Source of the DNA: an uncultured Candidatus Saccharibacteria bacterium
GTDB lineage: Bacteria > Patescibacteriota > Minisyncoccia > UBA6257 > WO2-44-18
Direction of reading: 5' to 3'
Length of the DNA: 64,000 nt
NCBI GenBank assembly: GCA_964637575.1
Contig: CAZWVU010000002.1
Location: 18,824 to 82,823, forward strand
In this document: piece by piece, positions 6,392 through 37,363 of the stretch
How the letters are laid out: every line of letters begins with the position of its first letter
Numbering within the stretch: the first letter of the stretch is position 1
Translations under genes and position numbers: made by a program
Notes under the pieces: generated by a model
Databases searched by the model: none
What the model was told of the DNA's origin: nothing
What the model saw: only the letters and a program-made list of their open reading frames with translations

Positions 6392-6416
6392 TAATCTCAG
6401 AACACCGCTCTTTACT

Positions 6417-6743: not shown

Positions 6744-6756
6744 CCGATGATACAGC

Positions 6757-6782
6757 AAGAGCCCCGCATCCGCGGGGCTCTT
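6757..6782 (+). promoter_or_regulatory. perfect 11-bp stem/4-nt loop hairpin between rpsJ and rplC (not followed by U-tract)
   Basis: aagagccccgc-atcc-gcggggctctt; 107-nt gap between S10 and L3 is unusually long for this operon. Confidence 0.5.
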
Positions 6783-6850
6783 GCGTTATAAGCGGCGTTT
6801 GTGTAGAATAGTAATCACTGTGTTTATTTTATTTCCACTTCAGGGAACAC

Positions 6851-7270: not shown

Positions 7271-7276
7271 ACTCCG

Positions 7277-7882: not shown

Positions 7883-7883
7883 T

Positions 7884-8165: not shown

Positions 8166-8179
8166 TATCCACTAATTTT

Positions 8180-9013
8180 ATGAAGCAATTTAAACCCACA
8201 AGTCCGTCACGGCGCCAGATGACCACCGTTCCTTACCGGGAGCTGATCACGACCCGCGAGCCGCACAAGCAGCTGACGATGCGTCTCCGCACCAACGCCG
8301 GCCGCAATAACCGCGGTGTCATTACCACGCGTCATCAGGGCGGCGGCAACAAAAAAATATACCGTGTCGTGGATTTTCTTCAGAATAAAGTAGGTATTCC
8401 GGGCCGGGTGGAAACCGTTGAGTATGATCCGTACCGCAGCGCCTTCATCGCGTTAATTTCCTACAAAGACGGGGAGCGCCGCTATATTCTGGCGCCGAAG
8501 GATCTTAAAGTGGGAGACATGATCGTGACCGCGGAGCAGGCTGAACTGAAACCAGGCAACCGGCTGAAGATCAAAAATGTTCCGGTCGGCTACCAGGTCC
8601 ATAATGTGGAAATCCGCGCGGGAGGCGGCGCCCGCCTGGCCCGCTCCGCCGGCGCCTATGCCGAAGTGCTCGCCCATGAAGGCGGCCTTACCGACCTCCG
8701 TCTTGGCTCCAAAGAAATCCGCAAGGTTTCTTCCGAAGGCTGGGCTTCCATTGGACAAGTTTCCAATCCTGATTATAATCTTACGAATATCGGAAAAGCC
8801 GGCCGTTCCCGCTGGCTGGGCATCCGCCCGACTGTGCGAGGCACGGTCATGAATCCGGTAGATCATCCGTACGGTGGCGGTGAAGGCAAACAGCCGCGTG
8901 GCACCAAGCGTCCGAAGACAATGTGGGGCAAGATTACCGGCGGCCGGAAGACCCGTCACGCGAAAAAGTGGTCGTCCAAATGGATCGTCCAGCGGCGTCC
9001 GAAAGTCCGCTAA
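8180..9013 (+). CDS. rplB: 50S ribosomal protein L2
   Basis: 277 aa; ...NPVDHPYGGGEGK... hallmark. Confidence 0.97.
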   Translation: MKQFKPTSPSRRQMTTVPYRELITTREPHKQLTMRLRTNAGRNNRGVITTRHQGGGNKKIYRVVDFLQNKVGIPGRVETVEYDPYRSAFIALISYKDGERRYILAPKDLKVGDMIVTAEQAELKPGNRLKIKNVPVGYQVHNVEIRAGGGARLARSAGAYAEVLAHEGGLTDLRLGSKEIRKVSSEGWASIGQVSNPDYNLTNIGKAGRSRWLGIRPTVRGTVMNPVDHPYGGGEGKQPRGTKRPKTMWGKITGGRKTRHAKKWSSKWIVQRRPKVR

Positions 9014-9022
9014 TAAAATAAT

Positions 9023-9364
9023 ATGTCACGCTCAAGCAAAAAAGGTCCTTTCGTGGATCCAAAATTAATGAAGAAGATCTCCAGGCTGAAGACCGGCGAC
9101 AAGACGGTTATTAAGACGTGGTCGCGTGATTCGGAGATCGCGCCGGAAATGGTGGGCTTCACCATCGGGGTACACAACGGCAAATCCCACATCGAAGTGC
9201 TGATTAAGGAAGAGATGGTCGGTCACCGTCTGGGTGAGTTTTCTCCGACGCGCAAATTCGTAAAACATGGAGGTAAGATGCAGCGTGAATTGGAGGTCGC
9301 CGCGCAGGCCGCGGAAGCGCAGAAAGCCGCCGCCGCGAAAACCGCGCCTGAAGCCAAGAAATAA
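9023..9364 (+). CDS. rpsS: 30S ribosomal protein S19 with ~20-aa Ala/Lys-rich C-terminal extension
   Basis: [15 protein letters not shown]...GHRLGEF typical S19; extra tail ...[22 protein letters not shown]. Confidence 0.95.
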
Positions 9365-9375
9365 ATATATCGAGT

Positions 9376-9870
9376 ATGGCAATGCAAACCGCAAAACTTA
9401 ATTATCTGAAAATCGCCCCGCGTAAAGTACGGCTTATTGCCAATACCTTGAAGGGACTCTCGGTCAAGGAAGCGGAGGCCCAGCTGGTGCTCCGCATTCA
9501 GCGTTCCTCGGAGCCGCTGTTGAAACTGCTCCGTTCCGCGGTTGCCAATGCGAAAAATAATAAGCTGGATACCAGCAAACTTTTCATCAGCTCAATCCTC
9601 GTAAATCAGGGACCGATGCTCAAGCGGTTTATGCCGCGCGCCCAGGGCCGCGCCACTCCGATCCACAAGAAAATGAGCCACGTCGTCCTGACACTGTCCG
9701 AACAGGAACACGCATTCGTTGACCGCTTCGTGATCAATCCTCCCGCGAAAAAAGTGAAAGAAACCAAAGAACGGGCCAAACCGAAGGCCGAAGAAGTTAA
9801 GAAGGAAACCGCGACCGGAACCAAGAAGCCGGGACTCTTAAAGCGGATGTTCCGCCGGACGGCTGTATAA
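9376..9870 (+). CDS. rplV: 50S ribosomal protein L22 with basic C-terminal extension
   Basis: 164 aa; L22 core then KKVKETKERAKPKAEEVKKE... tail. Confidence 0.93.
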   Translation: MAMQTAKLNYLKIAPRKVRLIANTLKGLSVKEAEAQLVLRIQRSSEPLLKLLRSAVANAKNNKLDTSKLFISSILVNQGPMLKRFMPRAQGRATPIHKKMSHVVLTLSEQEHAFVDRFVINPPAKKVKETKERAKPKAEEVKKETATGTKKPGLLKRMFRRTAV

Positions 9871-9879
9871 CACACCAAT

Positions 9880-10578
9880 ATGGGAAATAAAACACGACCA
9901 TTTTCATACCGACTCGGCATTATCCACAACTGGAACTCCCGCTGGATGCCGAAAAATCTTAAATTCAAATCCCATCTTGAGGAGGATGTTTTGATCCGTG
10001 ACATCGTGAATGAAAAAATCGGCCTGGCCGGCATCGTCCGGATCGAGATCGAACGTTCCGCCGACAATTCCTTCCGCGTGAGCATCAAGGCCGCCCGTCC
10101 GGGTTTGGTGATCGGCCGTGGAGGCAAGGGCATCGAAGATCTGACCGCCGCGGTCCGCGCTCAATTAGAGAAACTGTTCCACAAGCGCAGCGGTACCACG
10201 AAGCCTGCAAAATTCGGCTTGAGCATCAATGTTGAAGAGCTGAAGCGGACGGACATTTCGGCCCAGTATGTCGCGCAATCCATTGCCTGGGATCTGGAGA
10301 AGCGTCTCCCGTTCCGCCGCACGATAAAGAGATACATTGAAAGCTCCCTTCAGAACCGCGAGGTGCAGGGCGTGAAAATCAAGCTTTCCGGCCGCTTGGA
10401 CGGCAATGAAATCGCCCGCCGCGAATGGCTTGCGAAAGGGAAACTCCCGCTGCAGACGCTCCGCGCCAACATTGATTACGGGGAAGCCACATCCTTTAAC
10501 AGCTACGGCACCGTCGGCGTGAAGGTCTGGCTTTACAAAGGCGAGGTGTTCGACAAGGACAATAAAAAGTCTGTATAA
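9880..10578 (+). CDS. rpsC: 30S ribosomal protein S3
   Basis: 232 aa; KH-domain S3 sequence, position. Confidence 0.95.
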   Translation: MGNKTRPFSYRLGIIHNWNSRWMPKNLKFKSHLEEDVLIRDIVNEKIGLAGIVRIEIERSADNSFRVSIKAARPGLVIGRGGKGIEDLTAAVRAQLEKLFHKRSGTTKPAKFGLSINVEELKRTDISAQYVAQSIAWDLEKRLPFRRTIKRYIESSLQNREVQGVKIKLSGRLDGNEIARREWLAKGKLPLQTLRANIDYGEATSFNSYGTVGVKVWLYKGEVFDKDNKKSV

Positions 10579-18545: not shown

Positions 18546-18986
18546 ATGAAAACTATGCCAAACAAATCTAAAAAATTATGGGTCTGGATAGTAGTGGTCG
18601 CAGTTATTCTTATCGCGGTGGGCGCATTTTTGTGGCGGAACGGGTGGAAGCTGCCGACGTGGAGCGCGGGTGGTAATTACCAAGCCATTTTCTTGAGCAA
18701 CGGCCAGGTATACTTTGGTAAGGCGGCGCATCTCCGGGAGCAATATGTTACCCTTACCGACGTCTACTACTTGCAAGTAAATCAGGTTTTACAGCCTGTC
18801 CAGGGTAAGAAAGAGCCCCAGCCGACACAGGCCATCAGCCTGGCGAAGCTTGGCGCCAGCGAAATCCATAAGCCGACTGACGAGATGATGATCAACCGGG
18901 ACCAGATCTTATTCATCGAAACCATGAGCGATGATTCCCAGGTAGTGAAGGCGATCACTTCATATAAAGAAAGCCTGAAGAAATAA
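18546..18986 (+). CDS. hypothetical N-terminally membrane-anchored protein
   Basis: 146 aa; KKLWVWIVVVAVILIAVGAFLW signal-anchor then soluble domain; no family recognised. Confidence 0.55.
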   Translation: MKTMPNKSKKLWVWIVVVAVILIAVGAFLWRNGWKLPTWSAGGNYQAIFLSNGQVYFGKAAHLREQYVTLTDVYYLQVNQVLQPVQGKKEPQPTQAISLAKLGASEIHKPTDEMMINRDQILFIETMSDDSQVVKAITSYKESLKK

Positions 18987-19225: not shown

Positions 19226-19654
19226 TTACTTAAGCCCCTTTAGAATCTTCTTTGCGGCCTTGTTTTGTTCACGATCGTACTTATTTGCTTCCTTTTGCCG
19301 CCGGCGCTCTTCCTGGCGCCGCTTTTTATTTTCCGCCTCCTCTTCGGCTTTCCGCTTTTTGTCGCATAGGATGTCGTATAACTTTCTCCCGCCGCCGAGC
19401 TGTACAGATTCTCCGTTCCTGTACACCTTCACGTAGTAGTCCTTCACCCACGGTGACATCTCGTACATCCGCAGGAGATCGTCCTCTCGCTCGGTATAGC
19501 CGATAACAAAAGTTATCTTCTGCCCCCTGGTCGTCTTTTCAAGCTCCCAGTCCCCGCTCCTGAGCTGCTTCCATCCCCCAAGGCCGGCCGGTTTCGTCAC
19601 CAGCGCCTCAACCTTACTCGCCAATTTCTGAAGGTTTGTCGACTTCTCAGTCAT
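19226..19654 (-). CDS. hypothetical protein with ~100-aa N-terminal domain and Lys/Arg/Glu-rich C-terminal tail
   Basis: 142 aa; AAGGAGAG RBS; tail DKKRKAEEEAENKKRRQEERRRQKEANKYDREQNKAAKK. Confidence 0.6.
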   Translation of the reverse strand: MTEKSTNLQKLASKVEALVTKPAGLGGWKQLRSGDWELEKTTRGQKITFVIGYTEREDDLLRMYEMSPWVKDYYVKVYRNGESVQLGGGRKLYDILCDKKRKAEEEAENKKRRQEERRRQKEANKYDREQNKAAKKILKGLK

Positions 19655-19679
19655 TGCGCTCTCCTTTCAAAAATGCGGC

Positions 19680-20099
19680 TCAGATCGATGAAAGAATTCT
19701 CTTCAGAGTTTCCAAGAGCGAAAATTCCTTTTGGGGGTTCGGGATCATCTGCTTTTTGATTTTTTCCAGCCGAGGCTGGTCAATTGCCTCAAAGAGCTCC
19801 CCTGCCCGGTACGTAGTTTCAAAGACCAGTGGCCCGGCGCACACGCCATACCGAAGCATCGATTCAGATATGGTGCTCGCGTCGCACACATTGATCCGGT
19901 ATGTGAAGTGCTTTTCTGTTCCGATCCATTTTTCAAATTCCTGCCAGACGGTCACGCCGAAACGCTGTCCGCCGGCGTTGAAAGTGCTCATGAAGCAGAT
20001 GCCAACTCCGCCTCCGAACGTCCACTTCGTGCGCCTTCGCCGCGCAATGATACGGTCAACGATCTGCTTCTGCAGGGCCTCCTCGCATCCGGTCGTCAT
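19680..20099 (-). CDS. hypothetical protein (139 aa), first gene of minus-strand pair divergent from murC
   Basis: AAGGAAG RBS; no family recognised (TFGGGVGICFMSTFNAGG..., HFTY). Confidence 0.6.
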   Translation of the reverse strand: MTTGCEEALQKQIVDRIIARRRRTKWTFGGGVGICFMSTFNAGGQRFGVTVWQEFEKWIGTEKHFTYRINVCDASTISESMLRYGVCAGPLVFETTYRAGELFEAIDQPRLEKIKKQMIPNPQKEFSLLETLKRILSSI

Positions 20100-20137: not shown

Positions 20138-21394
20138 ATGAAGCGTCGGGTCAACCAGGTGTATTTCATCGGCATTGGCGGGATCGGGATGTCCGCGCTG
20201 GCGCGGTACTTTTTATCCGAGGGTTGGAAGGTTTCCGGATCCGATATTGCCCGCTCCTCTACCACTGACGAACTCAAAAAAGAAGGCGTGGCGATTTACA
20301 TTGGCAAACAATCTGCAAACAATCTCCGGAGGAGCCATCCGTCGCTGGTGGTCTATAATAATGCGATCCAGAAAGATAATCCGGAGTTTACCGAAGCGAA
20401 AAAACTTGGCGTCGCGCTCCGCTCCTACCCGGAAGTTGTCGGCGAGCTGACCAAGAAGTATAAAACGATCGCGCTTGCCGGTTCACACGGTAAAAGCACC
20501 ACCACGGCCATGACCGCACTTATTTTAATGGAGGCCGGTTATGACCCAACCGTCATCATTGGCACAAAACTCAAAGAACTCGGCGGCAAGAACTTCCGGA
20601 GGGGTCGGCTGGGTTGGCTGGTCCTGGAAGCTGACGAATGGAAGGCGGCATTCCTTAACTACTCTCCTTATGTTGCGACCATCACCAATATCGATAAAGA
20701 GCACCTGGATTTTTATAAGAATTTCGCCAACGTCAAAAAAACTTTTGAGGAATTCAAAGCGCGGTGCGAGAAGGTTGTGGAACGGCCGAACAATCCGAAA
20801 CTGGCCGCCGAGATCCGGCGCATCTTGAAAATCCCCGGCGACCATAACGTTCTGAATGCGCTCAATGCCTACGCAGTGGCCGAATACGTCGGCATTTCGA
20901 AGCCGGTCATCTTAAAAGCGCTTTCAAAATATCAGGGCGCCTGGCGGCGGATGGAATACCGGGGCAAATTGAACATTAAAAATGTGAACCTTGAAATTGA
21001 CGTATTCGATGACTACGCCCACCATCCTTCCGAGGTCAGAGCCACGCTCGCCGCATTCAAACAGAAATGGCCCCGGCATCCGCTGATCTGCATATTTCAG
21101 GCACATCAGGCGCACCGACTCAAAGCGCTCTTTAAAGAGTTCAAGGACGCATTCCGGTCTGCCGATAAGGTCATTCTCTTTCCTACGTATATTGTTGCCG
21201 GCCGGGAACGGGAGTTGGATGCCACAAAGAATTCCGAAACGCTCTCAAACATTATCGGCGCGGACTATCTTCGCAATCCAAAGGATCTAAAAAAAGTAGT
21301 GGCCACGGCGATTGAAAGTTTCGGCAACCGGCCGGCAATTATCGTGATGATGGGCGCCGGGGACATTGTGAACTATACTGAATCATTACTCTAA
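20138..21394 (+). CDS. murC: UDP-N-acetylmuramate--L-alanine ligase
   Basis: YFIGIGGIGMSALA N-terminal Rossmann motif, GSHGKSTTT, Mur ligase middle/C-terminal domains. Confidence 0.93.
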   Translation: MKRRVNQVYFIGIGGIGMSALARYFLSEGWKVSGSDIARSSTTDELKKEGVAIYIGKQSANNLRRSHPSLVVYNNAIQKDNPEFTEAKKLGVALRSYPEVVGELTKKYKTIALAGSHGKSTTTAMTALILMEAGYDPTVIIGTKLKELGGKNFRRGRLGWLVLEADEWKAAFLNYSPYVATITNIDKEHLDFYKNFANVKKTFEEFKARCEKVVERPNNPKLAAEIRRILKIPGDHNVLNALNAYAVAEYVGISKPVILKALSKYQGAWRRMEYRGKLNIKNVNLEIDVFDDYAHHPSEVRATLAAFKQKWPRHPLICIFQAHQAHRLKALFKEFKDAFRSADKVILFPTYIVAGRERELDATKNSETLSNIIGADYLRNPKDLKKVVATAIESFGNRPAIIVMMGAGDIVNYTESLL

Positions 21395-22176
21395 TGTTTG
21401 ATTTTAAGAACGCCGAAGAGTTCATTGAAAAGTGCGGCTATGTCATTGACGGCATTTGGTATCCGCGCGTCACAAAAATCGTGGAAATAAAGTCCAAGCC
21501 GGCGCTCTACCGCTACTATGGCGACGCGCCAAGCTATGCCAAGGCGCAGGCAATGACCGAGCAGTCCGCCAAAGAAGGCACGATGGTACACGAAGCGGTT
21601 GAGGCAATCCTGGTCGGCAAGGATCCCGTGGTGGATCCCCTGATCGCTCCCGCTGTGGAAGCCTTCCGGAAATTCCTTGAAACTAACAGCGTAGTGGTGG
21701 AACCCGCCCATGTGGAAAAACGCATCTGGAATCCGGTGCACCGCTACGCCGGCACCATCGACACACTGGCGCTCATTGACGGCAAATTCGGCGTCCTGGA
21801 TATCAAGACTTCCGCCGGCATTTACCGCGACTATAATCTTCAGCTTTCCGCGTATATGGACGCGTTGACGCGCGATCCGGTGATGGCCGGGCTTTCCACC
21901 CGCTGGATTCTCCGGATAGACCAGAACCAGACCTGCGTGCGCTGCGCGGCTACCATGCGCAGCAAAGGCGGCCGGGAAAAGATCAAGCGTCCGTATCGCA
22001 GCAATGGAACGAAAGTGTGTCCCGAAGACGGGCACGAATGGGGGCCGATGAAAGGAATCATTGAGATAAAAGAGTTCCCCTACTGGCAGCAGGACTTTGA
22101 GGCCTTTCTTGGCGCTAAAAAACTCTGGGAATGGGAGCAGGAGTATTGGCTTAAGAAGATAGGCTATCTAAAATAG
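21394..22176 (+). CDS. PD-(D/E)XK nuclease superfamily protein, Cas4/RecB-nuclease-like with CxxC...C Cys cluster
   Basis: ATG overlaps murC stop (taATGt); motifs GTIDTLALIDG, LDIKTS (D-x-K), YNLQLSAYM (QxxxY); Cys at 14 and CVRC...VCPEDGH. Confidence 0.65.
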   Translation: MFDFKNAEEFIEKCGYVIDGIWYPRVTKIVEIKSKPALYRYYGDAPSYAKAQAMTEQSAKEGTMVHEAVEAILVGKDPVVDPLIAPAVEAFRKFLETNSVVVEPAHVEKRIWNPVHRYAGTIDTLALIDGKFGVLDIKTSAGIYRDYNLQLSAYMDALTRDPVMAGLSTRWILRIDQNQTCVRCAATMRSKGGREKIKRPYRSNGTKVCPEDGHEWGPMKGIIEIKEFPYWQQDFEAFLGAKKLWEWEQEYWLKKIGYLK

Positions 22177-22185
22177 TTCGGGCGT

Positions 22186-22212
22186 TGGAATAAAAAACCG
22201 CCAGCAATGGCG
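22186..22212. terminator. bidirectional terminator between convergent genes
   Basis: aaccgccagcaatggcggtt flanked by A-run/T-run. Confidence 0.6.
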
Positions 22213-22213
22213 G

Positions 22214-22639
22214 TTATGCGCTTTGTTTTTCTCCAAGCGTCGGGGCGATTTCTTCCACCCAGCGGGTAATGGCCTTCCGTTCGCCAAGCGAACCGATGGA
22301 TCCCCAGGACTTGCGCCATTCCGGCTCGATCCCTTTTTCCACGAACATACGGGAAAGAACGTTCAGGCGGTCAATCAGCGCGTCGTGCGCAATCTTGCGC
22401 AAATGATCTGATTCTTCAGCTTCCTGCGGGCCCAGACGCTCACCTTCCGGTTTCTGCCGGTGCGCCTGCGACTGTACTCTTTCGAAATAGTTTTTCACCG
22501 ACTGCAGCATGTCGTTATACGCTTCCTGCAGCTGCGGGTCGCTTTTGACTCCTTTTTCAATTCTGTCCAGAATCCGGAACGCTTCGGAACGCTCTTCTTC
22601 TTCGCGCTTTTCCATCATCCTCTCCATCATTAGCGACAT
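22214..22639 (-). CDS. hypothetical acidic helical protein, last gene of ATPase operon
   Basis: 141 aa, highly charged; 35 nt downstream of the ATPase gene. Confidence 0.55.
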   Translation of the reverse strand: MSLMMERMMEKREEEERSEAFRILDRIEKGVKSDPQLQEAYNDMLQSVKNYFERVQSQAHRQKPEGERLGPQEAEESDHLRKIAHDALIDRLNVLSRMFVEKGIEPEWRKSWGSIGSLGERKAITRWVEEIAPTLGEKQSA

Positions 22640-22674
22640 GGGATAGATTAATAAAAACTTATTGTTTAGTCAAG

Positions 22675-25014
22675 TTAGCCGCGGAGGCGCTTGAGAATAT
22701 CCGCCTCGACTTCCTGGCGGTTGCGGCCATAGATCTGCCGGGACTGCTCTTTTAATTTCGATGCGAGTCCCTCGATAAACCGCGGCGAGCGCAATATCAA
22801 TTTCATGTTAAATGGCCGCGAAGTCTGGCCGTTGATCAGCAACTTCACTAGCGCGTTCAGATTGTCGATATTCACGAGATCATTCTCGGTGAACACCGGC
22901 TCAAACTGTTTGATAAGAAATTTCGCATCGTCGGCGCCCACCCGGAAGACGACCTGTGAGCCGACGTTACCGAAGACCGCGTCGCGGATTTTTTCAGCAA
23001 GTTGGGCGATGAACTGATGCGCCACCACCAGATTGAGCCGGTATTTGCGCGCCTCGGAAAGGATCGTCGCAATCGAATCGGTCGTGAAATTCTGGAACTC
23101 ATCGATGTATAGATTAAAATCCTTGCGCTGTTCCTGGGGGACGTCCACCCGTGACAGCGCGGCAAGCAAAACTTTCCCTACTACTACCATCCCGAGAAGT
23201 CCCGCATTGATATCCCCTATTTTGCCCTTGGAAAGGTTTACCAAAAGAATTTTCCCCTCGTCCATGATAGTCCGGAAATTCAACGAGGAGATAGGTTGGC
23301 CGATAATCGGGCGCATGTAATCGTTGGCGATAAAGTTGTTGAACTTGGAGGTGATGTACGGCGTCATATTGGCGAGCGAAGCGTCACCGCCGGCTTTGGC
23401 TGCCTCCTTGCTCCAAAAGTCGATCACGGTCGGGTTGGTCGCCTTTTCCAGCAAGCGCTTCCGGAATTCTGGATCGGTAAAGATTCGCGGCACCTCCATG
23501 AGCGTGGCGCGTTCGCCGGCATCATCCATTAACAGCAAAAGCGCGTTCCGCATGTACTGCTCAAACATCGGCCCCATGGTTTCGGCCGTAAAAAGTTTAT
23601 TAAAAATGCTTTGCATTTCGTTCACGATGAACGTCTTCTGTTCCGGCCGGGCTGGATCGTATTCCAGCATGTTCAGCCCGAACGGTTTCTCGATGTCTCC
23701 CGGGTCAAACACGATCACATCCTTGAACCGGTCCGCGGGAATATTGCCCAGCACCTCCTCGATGAGCTCTCCATGCGGATCCACTACCGCCGCGCCTTTA
23801 CCGCTTTTAATATCCGAAATAACCATATTGGAAAGCAAGGTGGATTTACCGGTGCCGGTCTGTCCGACTATATACACATGCCTCCGGCGGTCGTCGTCGG
23901 TAATATACACCGGCTTGGTTTCGCCGCGGAATGAGCTCTCTCCTATCAGGGTGCCGCTTGCCGGTAACACCGTCGGCGGCGGGGCTTCATGGGCCTTCAC
24001 CCATTTGATTTTGGGTATTTCCGTGCCGGCGGTGGGAAGATGCCAGATTCCGGCAAGCTCGTCAGCTCCGAGAATCATGGATTGCGCCGGGTCGAACTCC
24101 CGGAATACATACTGAAAGATCAGCTTTTGCGGGTTCTTCGCCTCCACCACCTTGAATTCATTATGGCCGGGTGCGGTGAACTGATTGAAGGAGCCGGTGA
24201 GATTATACAACAATTCTTCCGCGCGGTACGGCGACACAGCTGAGCTCACGAGACGGATATTCACATCAAATAACGGCTTGGAAGCTTTCTGGGTGAGAAG
24301 TTTGGCCGCCTCTTCATCAACGATCACCGGCTCCATGGATTCTCCCGGCTTAGGCTTTTTCGGCGAGAACTGCTTTCCTGCCAGCGCGTCCATCAGCTTC
24401 GCGCCGCGCTTCAGATTATAGATAATCTTCGCGATGTTTTTCCCCGTTGAAGGCTGGGCCGGTTTCGCAGTGATCTGCAACGAGAGTCCTTCACCCGTTT
24501 GCTCCACTTTAGAGAAGTTGTTAAGGATCGGCAGAAAGGTGTCTATGCCCGCCTCGATGCATGACCGCACCGGCAGGGCGTAATGCAGTTTTTGTTTTAA
24601 AAACGCCGCCCGCGACGCTCCTTCCGAATTGAATATGGTGTAGTCCTCGGCCGGCGTTACCTGCGCGTCGTGCCACAATCCCTGGATCTGCCGCGCCGCA
24701 AAATCGAGCGCGGTTTCCGGGACCGCCAGGTAAAAATGAATGTCCTCGCCAACGTTATGCACCGAGACTTCCAGTGAAAAGGGAATTTTCAGATTGGAAA
24801 GCAGGCCAAAAAGCTGGCTTGAAAAATTAATCTCTTCCAGTGGTTTTTGCTCGGCGGCCGGTTTTTGGGAAAGACGGATGGAAAGGAGCTTCAGTTTCAA
24901 GAGATTCGCAAACCGCCGGCGGCTTCGGCTGACCGCAATAACAATACTCGCGACCGCCACCACTATCAACACCGGAACTCCGAATGAAACGGCAAGCGCA
25001 ATGATATTCTGCAT
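22675..25014 (-). CDS. membrane-anchored FtsK/HerA-superfamily ATPase, type IV coupling protein (VirD4/TraG/TraD)-like
   Basis: 779 aa; one N-terminal TM (positive residues after it); Walker A YIVGQTGTGKSTLL; Walker B NLYIDEFQNF; ARKYRLNLVVAHQFIAQL resembles coupling-protein QxxxQL block. Confidence 0.7.
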   Translation of the reverse strand: MQNIIALAVSFGVPVLIVVAVASIVIAVSRSRRRFANLLKLKLLSIRLSQKPAAEQKPLEEINFSSQLFGLLSNLKIPFSLEVSVHNVGEDIHFYLAVPETALDFAARQIQGLWHDAQVTPAEDYTIFNSEGASRAAFLKQKLHYALPVRSCIEAGIDTFLPILNNFSKVEQTGEGLSLQITAKPAQPSTGKNIAKIIYNLKRGAKLMDALAGKQFSPKKPKPGESMEPVIVDEEAAKLLTQKASKPLFDVNIRLVSSAVSPYRAEELLYNLTGSFNQFTAPGHNEFKVVEAKNPQKLIFQYVFREFDPAQSMILGADELAGIWHLPTAGTEIPKIKWVKAHEAPPPTVLPASGTLIGESSFRGETKPVYITDDDRRRHVYIVGQTGTGKSTLLSNMVISDIKSGKGAAVVDPHGELIEEVLGNIPADRFKDVIVFDPGDIEKPFGLNMLEYDPARPEQKTFIVNEMQSIFNKLFTAETMGPMFEQYMRNALLLLMDDAGERATLMEVPRIFTDPEFRKRLLEKATNPTVIDFWSKEAAKAGGDASLANMTPYITSKFNNFIANDYMRPIIGQPISSLNFRTIMDEGKILLVNLSKGKIGDINAGLLGMVVVGKVLLAALSRVDVPQEQRKDFNLYIDEFQNFTTDSIATILSEARKYRLNLVVAHQFIAQLAEKIRDAVFGNVGSQVVFRVGADDAKFLIKQFEPVFTENDLVNIDNLNALVKLLINGQTSRPFNMKLILRSPRFIEGLASKLKEQSRQIYGRNRQEVEADILKRLRG

Positions 25015-25398
25015 TTATTGTAATAACCCTCGCGTTTTCAATTCCGCATAAAGCTTGTCGGTAAGCGCGTCATGAAAGGCGTCCATTTCTATCGGACTCA
25101 TCTTCCGTGCCTCGTCCGCCGCACGCTTGATGCCGTGATGAAGTGCGAGATCCAGAAGTTTTTCTACTTTCATTTTTATCTGGGGAGACTCCTTGGCAAA
25201 GTATCCCGGGAGATGAGAGGCGTCGTCTGACGCGGGAGCGCCCGGCGCGGGAACCGGGGCAGAAGACACGGGAAACTTCTCCTGAATCAGGGTTTTGACC
25301 GCCTGCTTCCCCTTCTCCGCCAATCCCCGCTCTTTGATTTCCAGGGAGAGGTTTTTAATCTCCTGCTCCAGTGTGGAATGCTCGAATGACTGTTTCAT
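25015..25398 (-). CDS. hypothetical protein (127 aa), first gene of ATPase operon
   Basis: MKQSFEHSTLEQEIKNLSLEIKERG...; stop abuts ATPase start; the ORF-track 5' extension to 25824 overlaps the divergent GT39 gene and is discarded. Confidence 0.5.
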   Translation of the reverse strand: MKQSFEHSTLEQEIKNLSLEIKERGLAEKGKQAVKTLIQEKFPVSSAPVPAPGAPASDDASHLPGYFAKESPQIKMKVEKLLDLALHHGIKRAADEARKMSPIEMDAFHDALTDKLYAELKTRGLLQ

Positions 25399-25413: not shown

Positions 25414-26898
25414 ATGGCTAAAAAATATTTCAGCGGTGTCAATTACTGGCTGCTGATTATCATAATTATAGCAACCTTCCTCCGCTTCTACCAAATAACG
25501 GTTATTCCGCCTGGTTTGTACCCGGATGAAGCAATGAATGGGAATAATGCGCTGGAGGCGTTGAGCACAAGAGATTTCAAGGTTTTTTACCCGGAAAATA
25601 ACGGTCGCGAGGGACTTTTGATCAATATGCAGGCAATCCTGATGGGCGCTTTGCACCGGCTTAACCTGGTCAGCCCCGTGAATCAGCCGTGGGTACTGCG
25701 CCTGCCCAGCGCCTTTTTCGGCGTGCTTACTATAGTGGGCCTCTATTTTCTGACGCGGGAACTTTCCGGAAGTAAAAAACTGGCGCTGTTCGCCGCGTTT
25801 CTTATGGCGACGGGATTCTGGCATATTAATTTTTCCCGCATCGGCTTCCGGGCGATCCTCTCGCCGTTTTTCCTTGTCTGGACGGTGTATCTCTTGTTGC
25901 TTTCATACCAGAAACTTTCCGAAGGCAGGCGAAGACTTGGAGTCGCGCTTCCGCTTCTCGCGGGCGCGCTCTATGGCCTCGGCTTCTATACCTATATTGC
26001 CTACAGGGCGACGCCAATCCTTCTCGCGATCTTCATTCTGGCCTGGCTGAAAAAATTCCGCGGCACCAAAGAAAAATTGCGAGATTTTTGGCATGCGACC
26101 GGTCACTTTCTCTTTGCCGCCATCCTGGTAGCGCTTCCCATCGGCATATACTTCCTTCATCACCCCTCCGACTTCTTCGGACGTAGCAGTGAAATTTCCA
26201 TCTTTAATTCCGCCACCCCGCTTCAGGATCTGGGACTGAACATCCTGAAAACGCTTGGGCAGTTCAATATTTCCGGCGATGGAAATTGGCGGCACAATAT
26301 CGCCGGCCAACCCCTCCTTTTTTGGCCGGTAGGAATTATGTTTCTTGTGGGATTCGCGGTGGCTATTAAAAGATTCCGCTTCCCGGTATGGTGGTTTCTT
26401 ATTGCCGGCCTGCCCGTCGTAATTTCCGACGAAGGGATTCCTCACGCGCTCCGCTCTATTCTCATGGCGCCGGCGGTGTATATGCTTGCCGCAATTGGCG
26501 GACTCTGGCTCTACGAACTGATGCGCGCGAGCAAAATCTTCAGAAGCCCCATGATGCTGATAATGTTTGTTGCCGCCCTTCTCGGCCTGCTGACCCTTGA
26601 GGCGTATGCCAGCTACTTCATTATCTGGGGACACAACAAAGAAGTGCAGGGCGCTTTCGCGCAGAATTACGTGGATATCGCCCGGGATCTCAACGCTATT
26701 CCCCACGCGGTTCCGAAGTACGTCATGGTGCAGGCCGGCGGCGTGGCCGTGCGCGGCATCCCCGTGCCCGCGCAGACCGTAATGTTTCTCACCAATACCT
26801 TCCTCCCCGCCAACCAGCAGGCCAAGAATATTCATTACGTTTTGCCGACTGATTCCATACTCATTCCGCCGCGTTCCTACGTTGCAGTCATCAAATAA
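25414..26898 (+). CDS. GT-C glycosyltransferase, family 39 (PMT/ArnT-like)
   Basis: 494 aa; many TM segments; N-terminal loop ...IPPGLYPDEAMNGNNA... (DE motif) typical of ArnT/PMT. Confidence 0.7.
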   Translation: MAKKYFSGVNYWLLIIIIIATFLRFYQITVIPPGLYPDEAMNGNNALEALSTRDFKVFYPENNGREGLLINMQAILMGALHRLNLVSPVNQPWVLRLPSAFFGVLTIVGLYFLTRELSGSKKLALFAAFLMATGFWHINFSRIGFRAILSPFFLVWTVYLLLLSYQKLSEGRRRLGVALPLLAGALYGLGFYTYIAYRATPILLAIFILAWLKKFRGTKEKLRDFWHATGHFLFAAILVALPIGIYFLHHPSDFFGRSSEISIFNSATPLQDLGLNILKTLGQFNISGDGNWRHNIAGQPLLFWPVGIMFLVGFAVAIKRFRFPVWWFLIAGLPVVISDEGIPHALRSILMAPAVYMLAAIGGLWLYELMRASKIFRSPMMLIMFVAALLGLLTLEAYASYFIIWGHNKEVQGAFAQNYVDIARDLNAIPHAVPKYVMVQAGGVAVRGIPVPAQTVMFLTNTFLPANQQAKNIHYVLPTDSILIPPRSYVAVIK

Positions 26899-31752: not shown

Positions 31753-33039
31753 ATGAAGCAGGCAGTGCTCGTCGATGGCGTGCGGACGCCGTTTATCAAA
31801 GCGGGTTCGTCCACAAAGCTGAGAGCGAAATGGTTTGGCTCTCTTCCCGTGCTCGAGCTGATGGAGCGTTATGACGCGCTCCGCACCAGCATTGATTCGG
31901 TGGTCGGCGCCAACATCGGCAACCAGATACTTCCGCCCGACGGCTCCAACATTGCGCGCATCATCGCGATTTGTTGCAACATTCCCCAGGAAGTGGATGC
32001 GCGGACGCTCAATATCAACTGCGGGAGCGGCCTTGAGGCCGTGATCGACGCCGCGATGCGCGTGGAGGTCGGCATGGCGAAGTGCGTGCTCGTGACCGCG
32101 GTGGAAGTGATGTCCGATTACACGGCCGCGTACGGACGCGAACAGCGGCAAAAGTTTGCCGAACTGAACACGCTCGCCCGCGCAAAGACGCCAATGTGGA
32201 GGAAAGGTCCCGGACTCGCCCTGAAAGCCGCGGGCGTCCGGGCAATGAAGCACGATCCGCAGTGGCTGATCAAGCTCGGCCTGACCGACCCGATGTCCGG
32301 CCTCGGCATGGACAAGATCGCCGACGCCATCGCCAAAGAATTCCAGATTTCCCGCAAGGAACTGGATCTCTACGCGCTGGAATCCCAGCGGCGGGCAACC
32401 CAAGCCCAAAAGTCGGGACGTTTGGCGAAAGAGATGCTGCATGCAAGCATCTGCACGGAACTGCACCTGCCGGAGCATGACAATGGCATCCGCGATGGCC
32501 AGACGCTGGAACAGCTCGCGAAACTCCGGCCGCTCAATGAAGGCGGTGTGACCACTCCCGGAAATTCTTCACAGGTTTCCGACGGCGCGGTCGCGCTCAT
32601 CATCGCGGATGAAGAGTTCGCCAAAGCCCAGGGATGGCCGGCGCTTGCCCGGGTAGGTTCGGCGCGGTCGGCCGTGGCCGGATGCGAGCCGTCCATGATG
32701 GGACTTGGTCCCGTCGCGGCGATCAAGAAATTGCTCTGCAAATTCGGCCGGACACCCCTGACTGCCTTTGACGTCATTGAAACCAATGAAGCATTCGCGT
32801 CAGTCGTGCTCGCTCAGAGCCGGCTTTTGGAAAAAGAAGGGATCGGTCCCCTCCCGATGGAGCAGACCAACGTCAACGGCGGCGCCATCGCCATCGGCCA
32901 CCCGGTCGGTGCCAGCGGCGCCCGCCTGGCGCTTACGGCGGCGCGGGAGCTCAAGGAGCGCAATAAGAAGTTCGCACTTGTGACGCTCTGCGTCGGCGGC
33001 GGCCAGGGCGTCGCCGCGATCCTCGAAAACGTCAGTTAA
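31753..33039 (+). CDS. acetyl-CoA C-acyltransferase (thiolase)
   Basis: 428 aa; NINCGSGLEAV (active-site Cys region), C-terminal GHPVGASGARL / LCVGGGQG thiolase signatures. Confidence 0.88.
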   Translation: MKQAVLVDGVRTPFIKAGSSTKLRAKWFGSLPVLELMERYDALRTSIDSVVGANIGNQILPPDGSNIARIIAICCNIPQEVDARTLNINCGSGLEAVIDAAMRVEVGMAKCVLVTAVEVMSDYTAAYGREQRQKFAELNTLARAKTPMWRKGPGLALKAAGVRAMKHDPQWLIKLGLTDPMSGLGMDKIADAIAKEFQISRKELDLYALESQRRATQAQKSGRLAKEMLHASICTELHLPEHDNGIRDGQTLEQLAKLRPLNEGGVTTPGNSSQVSDGAVALIIADEEFAKAQGWPALARVGSARSAVAGCEPSMMGLGPVAAIKKLLCKFGRTPLTAFDVIETNEAFASVVLAQSRLLEKEGIGPLPMEQTNVNGGAIAIGHPVGASGARLALTAARELKERNKKFALVTLCVGGGQGVAAILENVS

Positions 33040-33051
33040 ATTCATCCAAAA

Positions 33052-33077
33052 CCAGTGGACAACCCACTGGTTTTTTT
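33052..33077 (+). terminator. rho-independent terminator after thiolase
   Basis: ccagtgg-acaa-cccactgg + TTTTTTT. Confidence 0.7.
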
Positions 33078-33092
33078 GTACTATATCGGCGG
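33071..33092 (+). promoter_or_regulatory. conserved promoter/operator-like motif TTTTTTTGTACTATATCGGCGG
   Basis: Near-identical motif at 35229-35250 (TTTTTTTGTACTATAGCGTCGG), related one at 31688-31709; each directly after a terminator and ~30-45 nt before a beta-oxidation gene. Confidence 0.5.
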
Positions 33093-33110
33093 TACATTCA
33101 GAGGAGATTT

Positions 33111-35199
33111 TATGAAATTCTGGAAGGCGGAGATCGACAACGCGGAGCACGCGGTGCTCACGCTGGACCTCGGTCCGGAGGAAAAGCAGAACAAGCTGCG
33201 GGTGGGAGCGATCGAGGAGCTTGATGAATTTCTCAAGTCCAACATCCTGAATTCGCTCGTGATCTGCTCGGCCAAGCCGGACAGTTTCTGTGCCGGCGCC
33301 GACATCGAGGAAATCCGGGAAGCATTCCGGCACCCCGAAGAAGTCAACGCGCTTTTTGCCCGGATTGACAGTATCGCCGATCGTCTTCTCAACGCCCCGT
33401 TCCCTTCTGTCGCCGCGATCAGCGGTGCCACATTGGGAGGCGGCCTTGAACTGGCGATGATGTGCACCGAGCGGATCGCCGTGGATACGCCGAAGACGGT
33501 TTTCGGCCTGCCCGAGACGTCGCTCGGCATCATTCCCGGATTCGGCGGCACGCAAACCTTGCCCCGGATCGTGGGGCTGCGGAAAGCTGCGGAAATTATT
33601 CTCGGCGGGGCTTTCAAAAAGCTTTCGGCCAAGGATGCATTGAAATGCGGCCTGATCTCAAAGATCGTCAACTTCCCCAGCACGTTGCTGGAAAGCGCCA
33701 GGGAACGCGTCCGGCATCTCGGATCGTCCGGGTATCGAAATGGCGCAAGACATACCCCCGGCATTGAAAAGATTCCCTTCTTCGGCCGCCGGATGATTCT
33801 GAAAGGTGCCAAAACGCAGACGCTCCGCCTGACAAAAGGCGTCTATCCGGCGCCGTTGAAAGCGATTGAGGCGATGCGCAAAAGTGCCTGCAGTTTCAGT
33901 ACTGGACTGGCCAACGAACACCGGCTTTTCAAGGAATGCCTGAGAACGGATGAGGCGAAAAGCCTGATCAGTCTCTACTTCCTTCGGGAAGAAGCGCGGT
34001 CAAAGAAATGGGTGGATGCACCGCCGCAGGCTCCGCCGAAACGGCTGGGCGTGATCGGCGCCGGAAACAAAGGTCAGGGCATGGGCAAAGGAATCGCCTA
34101 TGCCGCAATCTCGGCCGGCATCCCGACCCTCCTTCACGACGTGAGCCCTGACAATCTCCATGATGCCGTCGTGCTTATTGGAAAATCGTTGATGGCCGAA
34201 GTGAAGAAGGGCAAACTGACGGCAGATCAGGCGAATGCGCGGCTCGGACTCCTCTCCTGGAGCTATGGCACGCGCTACGAAAGTTTCCCCGGCTGCGATT
34301 TCGTGATCGAGGCGATCACCGAAAACCTGCAGTGGAAACATGATCTGCTCGGAACGCTCGGGCTTATGCTTCCGGAGTCAACGGTGGTTGTCACCAACAC
34401 CTCTTCCCTGCTTCCGAGCGAAGTGGGCAAGTCGTTCCCGTGGAAAGAGAGTTTCGCGGCGATGCATTTCTTCAATCCGGCAGAGAAGATGGAGCTGGTG
34501 GAAATCGCCGGCACGCCGGACACGAAACCGGAGACGATCGCAAGAGCGCTGACGCTTACCAGAATGCTCGGCAAGACCCCGGTCGTCCTGGACAAGGAAT
34601 GCGCGGGACTCGTGGTCAACCGGATCCTGCTCCGCGGCGTCGGCCGTGCATTCACGGAAACCTTCCGCCACGGCGTGAATCCCTGGCTGATCGACGAAGC
34701 ACTGGAACATACCGGCTGCGCGATGGGCCCGTTCAAAACATCGGACCAGGTCGGATTCGACACGGCCGCCCACGTCCTGAAGATCATGTCCGAATGCTAT
34801 CCGGCAAACTATCCGGAAACGATCAAGGACCTGAACCTGGCCGGCAATAAAAACGTGCTGGGCAAAAAGACCGGCCGCGGGTTCTACTTTTGGAAGGACG
34901 ACAAAGTCCTCAAACCGAACGCCGACATTTTCTCCGACCTCCAGATACCCTTCGACCGGCAGAACATCGAGGCCACTGCTGCGTTTGCCGCAACCGAAGT
35001 GATGGTTGAAATGCGGCGGGAAGCGCTCGACCTGATCAGCGAAGGCGTCCTGAAATCCGGCGATATGATCGATCTCGCGATGATCCTCGGCGCCGGCATC
35101 TGTCCGAACCACCGCGGCATCCTCGGCCTGCGGGAAAAAGTGGAACTGCCGAAGCTCTCCGAATCCGAGGAGCTCGACCTCCGCAAGCTCTCACCATAA
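33111..35199 (+). CDS. bifunctional enoyl-CoA hydratase / 3-hydroxyacyl-CoA dehydrogenase (FadB/FadJ-like)
   Basis: Crotonase motifs (CAGADI, GGGLELAM, GLPETSLGIIPGFGGTQ) then NAD-binding GVIGAGNKGQGMG; start at MKFWKAE (ATG 33111, RBS ggagga). Confidence 0.85.
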
Positions 35200-35207
35200 A
35201 ACCCAAA

Positions 35208-35235
35208 CCGCACTTTACATAAGTGCGGTTTTTTT
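35208..35235 (+). terminator. rho-independent terminator after fadB-like gene
   Basis: ccgcactt-tacat-aagtgcgg + TTTTTTT, immediately followed by GTACTATAGCGTCGG motif. Confidence 0.7.
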
Positions 35236-35281
35236 GTACTATAGCGTCGGAACTTTCACATCTCATTTTTGGAGGAAATGT

Positions 35282-37363
35282 ATGGGACTCGATGTCGGAA
35301 AGCAGTTGGGTGCCGGCGCCGCGATTGCCGAGGAAACCCGTGGTAATGAGCGGTTGTCCGGTCTGATGGCCAAACTCTTCAAGGGAAAACTGGATATGAA
35401 CCAGCTTTTCCGATGGAAAGAAAGGGAACGACCGGAAAATCCGAATGTCGCGAAGATGTGCGCGAAGCTCGCGCAGTTTCTGATCCACGATGTGGACGCG
35501 GAATTGATCGAGCGGACGCACGCGATTCCACCCCCGGTGGTGAAGTGGCTCTGTGACAACAACTATTTCGGCCTCAAAATTCCGGAAGAGTACGGCGGCA
35601 TGGGATTCGCCCAGTCGGAGTATATGAAAGTGCTCCAGCTCGCCGCTACCTACTCGGGAGCCATCGTGGCGCTCCTTTCGGCGTCGAATACGATCGGCGC
35701 CGGCTGGCCGGTGATGGCCTATGGATCGCCGAAACAAAAAAATAAGTGGCTGCCCATGCTCGCGAAGTGTCCGTCGGCGTTCGCCTTTACCGAGGAGAAG
35801 GCCGGCTCGGATCCTTCTGCGATGGAGACGGTGGCAATCCGGGTCTACGAGGATCCAAAAGCCCCTGAGCCGTATGAGTGGGAAATGGAAAGGCCAAGGG
35901 CCATTGGCTATCGCCTTTACGGCCGGAAGTGGTGGACCACCAACGGTCCTTCCAGCGCCGCCGCCTTCATCTCGCCGGTGATCATTGTGATCGCGAAGAT
36001 CGTGAACGAACCGGACGAGCTGAAGATGAACGCCGGAAACAAGGATTACAAACCCTGCTTCGGCGCCTTCATCGTCCCGACCAATGCCGAAGGAATCAAG
36101 ATTGTTCAACGCTGCGAGTTCGCCGGGCTTCATGGCATCTACAATGGCATCACTGATTTCGAGAACTGCTACGTTCCGCGTGAGCAGCTGCTCGGCAAGA
36201 AGGTGGTGCGGCTTCATGAAGATGCCAGCGCATACCTAAACGCCCGGCAAAAGTTGGGTTACGAGCCCGATGCCGACGATGAAGTCGAAATGTTCTGCGA
36301 AGAAGGTTCGGGCTTCAAGATCGCGCTGGAAGCGCTGAACAGCGGGCGGATCACGCTCGCCGGTTCCTGCGTGGCGATGGCGAAGAACTGCGTCTCCGCC
36401 GGCAAGTGGTGGGGCAACACGCGATTCCAGTGGGGCAAACTCATCGGTCAGCATGAGGCGGTCGGCAGCGGCATTCTCGTGAATGACCTCGCCACCACCT
36501 TCGCGCTGGAAGCGATGATCTGGTACGCCGCTCTGCAAGCGGATGAGCACCGTGATTGCCGCATGGAAGCCGCCACCTGCAAGGTCCTGGCGTCCGAACG
36601 CGCCTATCAAATCGCCGACAATTTCCTGCAGATGCGCGGCGGACGCGGCTACGAAACCGCCGCATCGCTGGCACAGCGCGGCGAAGCGCCGCTGCCGGCG
36701 GAACGCTGGTGGCGCGACGCGCGCATCAACCGCATCTTTGAGGGAGAGTCCGGCACCCTGCTCCGCATGTTCGTCGTCCGCGAAGGGCTGAACGACTATA
36801 TGGAGCGCGGCAAGATCTTTTTTGAAAAGGATCACCGCTGGCAGAAATTGAAAACGGCCGCCGGATTCGGCATGGACCTCATGTCCAACCGGATCCCGGG
36901 TTCACTGGGCGCCATGCCTCATGTGCACACCCTGCTCAAGCCGCACCTCCGGTTCATTGAGAAGAGCGCCCGCCGGCTCGCCAACGCGATCATTCTCGCG
37001 TCGGGAAAGCACCGGCACAAGCTGCCCAACAAACAGCTGACGCTCCGCCGGATCTTCGAGATCGCCGCCGAGCTGTACGCCATGGCAACCGCCTGCTCGT
37101 ACGTCGCCTGGCTGAAGGAACACTTCGACCACGTGAACGAACACAATGCGGGGCTTTGGAATAACCGCTTCGCGCAGCTCGCGAATCTCTATTGCCTGGA
37201 AGCCCGGAAACGGGTTGAGCAGGAATTCGCGGCGCTTGCCTCCAACAGTGATGCCGAAGCCCGCGGGGTCGCGAAGGACCTTCTCGGGGGCGGCATGGAC
37301 GCCTGGGTCAAGGACAATATCGTTCCGACCGTGGACACCCTCGGCCTCGAAAGGAAAGAGTAA
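35282..37363 (+). CDS. acyl-CoA dehydrogenase (long form)
   Basis: 693 aa; ACAD N/middle/C domains (…GMGFAQSEYMKV…FAFTEEKAGSDPSAM…FEGESGTLLR…); start at MGLDVGKQ (ATG 35282, RBS ggagga). Confidence 0.85.
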   Translation: MGLDVGKQLGAGAAIAEETRGNERLSGLMAKLFKGKLDMNQLFRWKERERPENPNVAKMCAKLAQFLIHDVDAELIERTHAIPPPVVKWLCDNNYFGLKIPEEYGGMGFAQSEYMKVLQLAATYSGAIVALLSASNTIGAGWPVMAYGSPKQKNKWLPMLAKCPSAFAFTEEKAGSDPSAMETVAIRVYEDPKAPEPYEWEMERPRAIGYRLYGRKWWTTNGPSSAAAFISPVIIVIAKIVNEPDELKMNAGNKDYKPCFGAFIVPTNAEGIKIVQRCEFAGLHGIYNGITDFENCYVPREQLLGKKVVRLHEDASAYLNARQKLGYEPDADDEVEMFCEEGSGFKIALEALNSGRITLAGSCVAMAKNCVSAGKWWGNTRFQWGKLIGQHEAVGSGILVNDLATTFALEAMIWYAALQADEHRDCRMEAATCKVLASERAYQIADNFLQMRGGRGYETAASLAQRGEAPLPAERWWRDARINRIFEGESGTLLRMFVVREGLNDYMERGKIFFEKDHRWQKLKTAAGFGMDLMSNRIPGSLGAMPHVHTLLKPHLRFIEKSARRLANAIILASGKHRHKLPNKQLTLRRIFEIAAELYAMATACSYVAWLKEHFDHVNEHNAGLWNNRFAQLANLYCLEARKRVEQEFAALASNSDAEARGVAKDLLGGGMDAWVKDNIVPTVDTLGLERKE

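Follow-up and report, generated by a model that had tools for sequence, protein, structure and literature searches.

A membrane-anchored, coupling-protein-like ATPase with a predicted VirB4-type N-terminal domain in the core chromosome of a Parcubacteria genome

Genes, junctions and signals at the locus

We analysed a 64,000-nt stretch of DNA from contig CAZWVU010000002.1 (the window; all positions are in its numbering, and genes were called from open reading frames (ORFs) with their translations), in which the gene of a membrane-anchored 779-aa ATPase, preceded by that of a small protein designated p127, lies tail to tail with murC and a nuclease gene. The plus-strand pair consists of murC (UDP-N-acetylmuramate--L-alanine ligase; 20138-21394), identified by TIGR01082 with 373 bits (cut-off 335), and a 260-aa ORF (21394-22176) assigned by its profiles to PD-(D/E)XK nucleases. 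On the minus strand lie p127 (25015-25398), a soluble protein of 127 aa, the ATPase (22675-25014) and a 141-aa ORF downstream of it (22214-22639). Divergent from p127, on the plus strand, is the gene of a GT39/PMT-like GT-C glycosyltransferase (25414-26898; Pfam PMT, 28.5 bits), hereafter GT39. An earlier reading of this DNA from its letters (the sequence-only reading) had placed these six ORFs and had quoted motifs of the ATPase and the nuclease; all of them were present.

The TAA of murC and the ATG of the nuclease gene overlap by one base (ctcTAATGttt), the junction that had been given as taATGt. The nuclease had also been called fused to murC; the two are separate genes with a start/stop overlap. 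No spacer separates the p127 stop codon from the ATG of the ATPase, and the start codons of p127 and GT39 are 15 bp apart (aatatactgtatgca). The following two signals come from a consensus scan only. A promoter-like site for the p127–ATPase operon was located within the GT39 coding sequence (25465-25494, minus strand), 60-70 nt upstream of the operon; it has TTGGTA, an 18-nt spacer and a TG-extended TATAAT, with 10 of 12 positions matching, and would give a candidate leader of ~60 nt. Thus, a leaderless p127 mRNA, which had been proposed together with the 15-bp spacer, is possible but not required, while the spacer itself was as described. A hairpin resembling an intrinsic terminator (AACCGCCATTGCTGGCGGTT, then TTTTATT; 22196-22215, minus strand) would mark the end of the minus-strand operon.

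Architecture and relatives of the ATPase

The sole hydrophobic region of the ATPase has its core at residues ~4-28, with a Kyte-Doolittle maximum of 2.82 at residue 4, and is followed by RSRRR. The AlphaFold2 (AF2) model has a single helix over residues 2-38, and the N-terminal transmembrane (TM) helix was accordingly placed at residues ~2-38 (24901-25011, minus strand), in agreement with the single TM segment noted before. According to the positive-inside rule, the N terminus would face outwards and the remainder of the protein would be cytoplasmic.

The TM helix is followed by a domain of ~310 aa (residues ~40-345; 23980-24897), previously described as ~400 aa with no recognisable family. 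It is Pfam PF26449, named DUF8128, the name being taken from precomputed annotations, and it was found at the N-terminus of the best 120 ATPase homologues listed. UniRef calls such proteins "DUF8128 domain-containing" and NCBI "type IV secretion system DNA-binding domain-containing"; our literature search found no paper that mentions PF26449 or DUF8128. The C-terminal part (residues 355-779; 22678-23952) is a P-loop motor with the Walker A box GQTGTGKST (residues 384-392; 23839-23865), an all-alpha insertion (residues ~457-585; 23260-23646), the Walker B box LYIDEFQNF (residues 635-643; 23086-23112) and the block AHQFIAQL (residues 665-672; 22999-23022).

Three Pfam models of type IV coupling proteins (T4CPs) scored above their cut-offs: T4SS-DNA_transf with 28.7 bits (cut-off 20.1), TrwB_AAD_bind with 32.7 (20.5) and TraG-D_C with 24.2 (22). 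DUF87 was also above its cut-off, with a match limited to the P-loop region, and FtsK_SpoIIIE was below. Conjugation equivalogs of NCBIfam matched weakly, TraD and VirD4 being far below their cut-offs; TIGR00929 (VirB4_CagE) reached 24.4 bits against a cut-off of 643.1, and the Pfam scan gave no AAA_10 match. The solved sequences closest to the ATPase were TrwB and DotL. The protein is therefore a relative of VirD4/TraG-type coupling proteins, as had been read from its motifs.

In the AF2 model, an eight-helix insertion between Walker A and Walker B occupies the position of the all-alpha domain of TrwB. The structural comparison figures were 24.1 for the VirB4 C-terminal domain (4ag5), 22.2 for the DptH C-domain, 21.5 for TrwB, 19.9 for DotL, 19.7 for HerA and 10.6 for FtsK. 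In a separate Foldseek search with the full-length model, full-length TrwK chains ranked first, end to end (E = 7.6e-15, ~876 columns), with TrwB behind. On the models, DUF8128 was shown to have the predicted fold of the VirB4 N-terminal domain, an assignment made here. Because TrwK ranked first end to end while the sequence profiles favoured coupling proteins, we describe the ATPase as a VirB4-type architecture with its own membrane anchor and a motor of coupling-protein-like sequence.

This combination corresponds to neither parent class in full. In canonical T4CPs, the N-terminal membrane domain consists of two helices, and a cytoplasmic N-domain of ~300 aa is lacking. The ATPase has their nucleotide-binding domain with Walker A and B boxes and the inserted all-alpha domain; however, in place of a two-TM domain directly before the nucleotide-binding domain it has one TM helix and then DUF8128. 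In this it differs from TrwB (R388; PDB 1e9r), DotL (7ovb) and Cag-beta (8dol). Linkage to relaxase or mating-pair-formation genes was seen neither in the scanned ORFs of the window nor in 80 related loci; the latter are the best loci kept from a pattern scan of one genome per species, which found at least 562 genomes with an ATPase relative. With VirB4 proteins (TrwK of R388, PDB 7o42/8rtd; Thermoanaerobacter, 4ag5) the ATPase shares the succession of a VirB4-type N-terminal domain and a C-terminal ATPase domain. It differs from them in that T4CP profiles are favoured over TIGR00929 and the AAA_10/CagE-type Pfam families, in having its own TM helix, and in the absence of VirB3, VirB6 and VirB8 neighbours from the window and the related loci.

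Other ATPase families were considered and rejected. An FtsK/SpoIIIE paralogue did not fit the sub-threshold FtsK_SpoIIIE score, and no gamma domain was detected. HerA was set aside on account of the VirB4-N fold found in place of a HAS barrel, and no NurA or Sir2 neighbour was found. For the defence ATPases (mad8 of MADS; DptH/DndH), neither co-located system genes nor a patchy distribution was found, although PADLOC mad8 matched the ATPase with E = 5.5e-18.

Full-length homologues outside Patescibacteria had 21-27% identity. They were found on 365 plasmids of Streptomyces, Bacillus, Clostridium, haloarchaea and Sulfolobus, where they are collinear over the full length (~83-91% of the query, 24-26% identity, E down to 2e-52). 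In plasmids of B. subtilis MH-1 (WP_121549396.1), Shouchella clausii (WP_248290882.1) and Embleya (WP_331738717.1), the homologue, with the same N-domain and motor, lies directly upstream of a Replic_Relax (PF13814) protein, and a separate AAA_10-type VirB4, TcpE, PrgI and an NlpC/P60 hydrolase are encoded nearby. This position in a conjugation cluster indicates that the homologue occupies the coupling-protein slot there, the plasmids having a VirB4 besides. Unlike the plasmid genes, the window gene has no Replic_Relax, AAA_10 VirB4, TcpE, PrgI or cell-wall hydrolase gene nearby, and it has p127. On a haloarchaeal plasmid (L168:5734-6921), the N-domain is a separate 395-aa ORF ahead of the ATPase.

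Phage homologues form the family phrog_5156, with members in the Bacillus phages SPO1 (gp27.4), SP8, SP-10, phage G (gp156) and D6E (ORF23). Its HMM matched the ATPase over residues 61-776 (E = 7e-84), and the architecture is the same; in contrast, identity is 21-26%, the phage proteins carry no assigned function, and the phage contexts are a lysogeny/partition region (D6E) and genes without assigned function (SPO1). In the temperate phage D6E (L164:3758-6016), the homologue is located between a partition gene and an integrase, and gp27.4 of SPO1 (L163:3200-5920) lies among genes without assigned function, near gp27 and gp28. Taken together, these comparisons showed that the ATPase and the plasmid coupling ATPases descend from the same family, and they assign DUF8128 a fold and connect it with phrog_5156 and with the coupling-protein slot in conjugation clusters on plasmids of Gram-positive bacteria and archaea.

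Conservation and neighbours of the ATPase and the nuclease

More than 6,400 homologues of the ATPase were found, together with ~2,000 of the nuclease and ~1,400 of p127. In the best 80 loci, the ATPase was 54-83% identical to its relatives. We compared it with neighbouring genes in those loci that share both: the ATPase had 61% identity against 66% for YchF, 68% against 62% for Adk, 68% against 65% for Map, 67% against 55% for MurC, and 58% against 48% for GT39. Judged by these identities, the ATPase was shown to be conserved at the level of core genes, on par with ychF, adk and map and above murC and GT39. At least one orphan T4CP homologue is thus as conserved as genes of translation and nucleotide metabolism.

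Of 72 loci, 58 had the p127 gene on the same strand no more than 300 bp upstream of the ATPase gene, and 66 had it within 6 kb. GT39 was directly divergent from p127 in 29 of 62 loci, and ychF lay within 5 kb upstream of the ATPase in 18 of 51. The genes downstream varied: an amidohydrolase, PGK, GtrA (nine loci), an FAD oxidase, a sugar nucleotidyltransferase and assorted housekeeping genes were found there. The sequence-only reading had taken p127, the ATPase and the 141-aa ORF as a three-gene operon; as a conserved unit this did not survive, since only 1 of 160 related loci had a homologue of the 141-aa ORF. What is conserved is the pair of p127 and the ATPase, often with a divergent GT39. 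No second copy of the ATPase was found in the window; of the 80 loci, L069 alone carries another T4CP-like gene within 10 kb, one that lacks the N-domain.

The p127 family comprises ~1,427 homologues, all of ~130 aa and without a name or Pfam domain; the start codon used here is backed by 68 orthologues of 125-153 aa. Its N-terminal helix is joined by a Pro/Ala-rich linker to a conserved helical domain at the C-terminal end. In its conserved half (residues 63-127), P64, Y66, E79, D106, H109 and D110 are invariant, and a DAFHDAL motif is present. These invariant polar residues are more suggestive of a binding or metal site than of a plain coiled coil. Pfam at E <= 1 returned only noise for p127, and a profile search of the PDB gave no match. 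We found no hydrophobic segment in it, indicating that p127 is not VirB3-like. The plasmid and phage loci that carry ATPase homologues have no p127 counterpart.

The 141-aa ORF matched Pfam DUF3232 at the borderline (27.5 bits against a cut-off of 27.4), and tblastn and phmmer located its only homologue among the 160 related loci in L002. It is a lineage-specific add-on outside the conserved unit. It had been called an acidic protein; the ORF is there, and its acidity is only mild (28 D+E against 24 K+R).

Several further observations were made around the ATPase genes of the related loci. Envelope-glycosylation genes recur directly downstream, such as a GtrA-like gene or a sugar nucleotidyltransferase gene (e.g. 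L049:12385-13047, L009:10349-11260). A family of Cys-rich soluble proteins of ~575-598 aa, with many CxxC pairs and weak treble-clef zinc-finger matches, occurs in 13 of the 80 loci as one to three tandem paralogous copies of 40-48% identity; the window has no member. The copies separate the p127 gene from the ATPase gene in L020 (L020:8090-9886), L036 (L036:6155-7948, 7924-9720) and L045 (L045:4565-6322, 6319-8079, 8101-9897), and in L069 (L069:3941-5662, 5667-7424) they directly follow the second, N-domain-less T4CP-like ATPase gene; a role as cargo or as partners of the ATPases is conceivable for this family. On two Parcubacteria contigs, a 244-aa ORF adjoining ychF contains DUF8128 without a motor (L108:8661-9395; also L105) and is either a truncated remnant or a stand-alone form; a representative search for DUF8128 returned several matches of ~325 aa as well. 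On another Parcubacteria contig, a PrkA/DUF444/SpoVR trio (L161:14347-18331) lies a few kb from the ATPase gene.

The nuclease contains the motifs IDTL (residues 122-125), DIK (136-138) and QLSAY (150-154) and the cysteines C14, C181, C184 and C209. The exonuclease family phrog_298 matched it with E = 1.9e-27; Pfam PDDEXK_1 (18.5 bits) stayed below its cut-off of 22, and the PADLOC Cas4 match was weak (E = 7.6e-5). A single-sequence search of the PDB gave no match, and the family profile found MGME1 (E = 1.1e-5) over residues 55-163, a region that includes the catalytic motifs. Homologues number ~2,004; the best 120 are 59-92% identical, and those with names are all from Parcubacteria.

In 31 homologues, D123, D136, K138, Q150, Y154, E61, H66 and E108 were invariant. 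The catalytic D...D-x-K...Q...Y set is thus intact and not lost on alignment, and the assignment to PD-(D/E)XK enzymes, made before on the motifs, holds. We regard the protein as a putative exonuclease of the MGME1/RecB type, and it has in common with MGME1 and the Cas4/RecB-family nucleases the PD-(D/E)XK core and the D...D-x-K...Q-x3-Y motifs. C181, C184, C209 and H214 were also invariant, whereas C14 was a cysteine in 21 of the 31 homologues and N or S in the other 10, suggesting a CCCH site (C-x2-C...C-x4-H) and not the 1+3 Cys cluster of Cas4. The predicted metal site is therefore of the zinc type, in a zinc-ribbon insertion. The 1+3 cysteine pattern had been read as compatible with an Fe-S or Zn cluster: the cysteines are there and the zinc-type set is conserved, but the N-terminal cysteine is variable and a Cas4-like Fe-S cluster was not borne out. 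Unlike Cas4 and AddB, the nuclease lacks the conserved 1+3 Cys, has the CCCH insertion (C181-x2-C184...C209-x4-H214), neighbours murC and has no cas context.

Among 80 metagenomic loci of the nuclease, with counts taken from those with enough flank, murC was upstream on the same strand in 32 of 60, and the gap between the aligned segments was <=70 nt in 20 of these. The nuclease belongs with murC and not with the ATPase. The two genes would be co-transcribed and probably translationally coupled; the co-translation claimed earlier is thus upheld as to linkage, and the coupling itself is graded as probable only. From its sequence, the nuclease may be a housekeeping enzyme that processes DNA ends or single-stranded DNA.

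Possible role of the p127–ATPase pair and its chromosomal setting

A large part of bacterial diversity belongs to Patescibacteria, some of which, at least, depend on a type IV secretion system (T4SS) for epibiotic growth. To our knowledge, the T4SS of Patescibacteria has no relaxase and no assigned coupling ATPase or substrate. We consider it probable that the locus holds two unrelated conserved gene pairs, placed tail to tail: murC–nuclease and p127–ATPase, the latter a T4CP descendant that feeds a T4SS. This is a composite statement, and its parts on identity and architecture are much firmer than the coupling step. The p127–ATPase pair derives by vertical inheritance from the coupling protein of monoderm-type conjugation systems. 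The coupling of the ATPase to a T4SS, taken by itself, is tentative, and we place it slightly on the doubtful side.

In the proposed mechanism, the ATPase would assemble as a membrane-associated hexamer and use ATP to feed a macromolecular substrate into the chromosomal, relaxase-less T4SS of Patescibacteria, which would be encoded elsewhere. DUF8128 would dock the ATPase onto the VirB4/VirB3/VirB8 platform as the N-domain of VirB4 would, and p127 may stand in for a relaxosome as a cytosolic adaptor or regulator. The two proteins offer a target for asking what the T4SS of Patescibacteria moves, and in which direction.

A survey of T4SS genes provides the setting for this proposal (Quinonero-Coronel et al., 2025; PMC12102498; what follows refers to the part of the article available to us). 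It reports VirB4 in 2,417 of 3,035 Patescibacteria genomes, as a clade nested in MPF_FATA, and 5,713 VirD4-type T4CP homologues in 2,918 Patescibacteria genomes, of which 148 are near virB4; relaxases are very few. The ATPase of the window is almost certainly among these 5,713 orphan homologues: it comes from the same taxon, matches VirD4/T4CP profiles and is a chromosomal gene distant from virB4 and without a relaxase. To the counts and distances to virB4 given there, the present analysis adds the DUF8128/VirB4-like N-domain, p127, the GT39 synteny and the level of conservation. The ATPase is a domesticated coupling-type ATPase that bears a VirB4-type N-domain and has a new partner, of a class previously noted in Patescibacteria and uncharacterised.

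A more specific form of the proposal makes p127 and the DUF8128-ATPase the missing cytoplasmic motor of the essential, relaxase-less T4SS, with the conjugation machine serving to feed the cell: plugged into the VirB4 platform and aided by p127 as a lineage-specific adaptor, the ATPase would draw nucleic acids or other macromolecules of the host into the epibiont. In a 2026 preprint, others have proposed T4SS-associated acquisition of host RNA by a cultivated Patescibacterium (10.64898/2026.06.21.733656). We regard this form as quite improbable.

Several points weigh against a role in secretion. In S. epibionticum, the one Patescibacterium tested genetically, t4cp is non-essential and other T4SS genes are essential, as stated in PMC12102498, although this t4cp may not be of the DUF8128 type. 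No T4SS gene was found near the ATPase in the window or in the 80 related loci. Besides p127, the only recurrent neighbours are envelope-glycosylation genes (GT39, GtrA, sugar nucleotidyltransferase) and ychF. Coupling proteins are not usually conserved to the extent observed, which would be in keeping with a housekeeping function apart from a T4SS. Furthermore, the structural statements on the ATPase are based on AF2 models, and which part of TrwK corresponds to the N-domain was concluded indirectly, as other ATPases gave no match, and not read off an alignment.

These points favour an exapted motor that works independently of a T4SS, as a housekeeping membrane ATPase of the cell envelope or cell cycle; examples would be the export or handling of glycosylated surface proteins with GT39, or FtsK-like clearing of DNA at division. 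The core-gene level of conservation, equal to that of ychF, adk and map, agrees with such a role, as do the divergent GT39, the downstream GtrA genes and, in another locus, the sugar nucleotidyltransferase, and the ATPase never adjoined T4SS genes in the 80 loci. In the view of the survey authors, t4cp exaptation "cannot be ruled out", and the dispensable t4cp of S. epibionticum points the same way. However, the FtsK_SpoIIIE score and the failure to detect a gamma domain do not suit an FtsK-like function, the glycosylation synteny is partial and could reflect gene order kept in small genomes, and outside a T4SS platform it is hard to see what a VirB4-type docking domain would be used for. We therefore consider the exapted motor unlikely, although it is the strongest rival of the proposed T4SS-feeding ATPase.

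The sequence-only reading had joined the ATPase operon and the nuclease into one DNA uptake/transfer or anti-phage module embedded in core genes. In the window and its closest relatives (L001, L002, L006, L008, L019 and L040), the two genes are convergent neighbours, both families handle DNA, and PADLOC gave the mad8 match for the ATPase and the weak Cas4 match for the nuclease. Nevertheless, only 7 of 65 ATPase loci had the nuclease within 1.2 kb downstream of the ATPase, and an ATPase orthologue was within ~2.5 kb of the nuclease in 8 of 56 nuclease loci with enough downstream flank. The genes are on opposite strands, the terminator-like hairpin ends the ATPase operon, and the conserved partner of the nuclease is murC. 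Both genes are near-universal, highly conserved and single-copy, in contrast to the patchy defence systems; the window showed neither a CRISPR array nor methyltransferase, cas, dnd or other system genes, and the Fe-S ligand set of Cas4 is unconserved in the nuclease. Conservation of the five-gene neighbourhood, which had been suggested as a check, was confined to the p127–ATPase and murC–nuclease pairs. A joint module is thus highly improbable, and the translocase next to a Cas4-like nuclease is an accident of gene order.

The least credible alternative, a remnant of a prophage, an integrated plasmid or an integrative and conjugative element (ICE), has in its favour the full-length homologues in Bacillus phages (phrog_5156) and on the 365 plasmids, but those are 23-27% identical against 55-83% for the syntenic chromosomal orthologues of Paceibacteria, adk, map, murC and ychF flank the locus, no integrase, tRNA gene, repeat boundary or composition shift was found in the window, and the Replic_Relax partner was missing in the window and in 161 of 162 related loci (queries from the three plasmids against ~2 Mb of related loci gave one weak match, in L037).

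The window is core chromosome of a Parcubacteria/Paceibacteria (Patescibacteria) genome. Its housekeeping genes include secY-adk-map, murC, ychF, aminoacyl-tRNA synthetases and murG, the GC profile is flat without anomaly, and homologues of every gene were found in Parcubacteria/Paceibacteria metagenome-assembled genomes, e.g. Harrisonbacteria, Wolfebacteria and Liptonbacteria. Pfam scans of the tested ORFs and further searches, with some small ORFs unscanned, found no relaxase, VirB4, integrase, tRNA gene or CRISPR-like/tandem-repeat array in the window; the earlier statement that relaxase, VirB4 and integrase are missing beside the ATPase, and that this is no conventional conjugative element, was borne out by the scanned window ORFs.

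Further genes of the window were recorded. Two minus-strand ORFs of 142 and 139 aa (19226-20099) lie between a 146-aa ORF (18546-18986) and murC; they had no Pfam match and no tblastn match in 160 related loci, and appear to be lineage-specific or fast-evolving small genes. A second PMT_2-type GT-C glycosyltransferase, of 634 aa, is encoded at 37763-39667. A beta-oxidation set at 31753-37363 comprises a thiolase (31753-33039), a FadB-like enoyl-CoA hydratase/3-hydroxyacyl-CoA dehydrogenase (33055-35199) and an acyl-CoA dehydrogenase (35234-37363); such a set is unexpected for a metabolically reduced Patescibacterium, and the same genes occur near ychF in L161.

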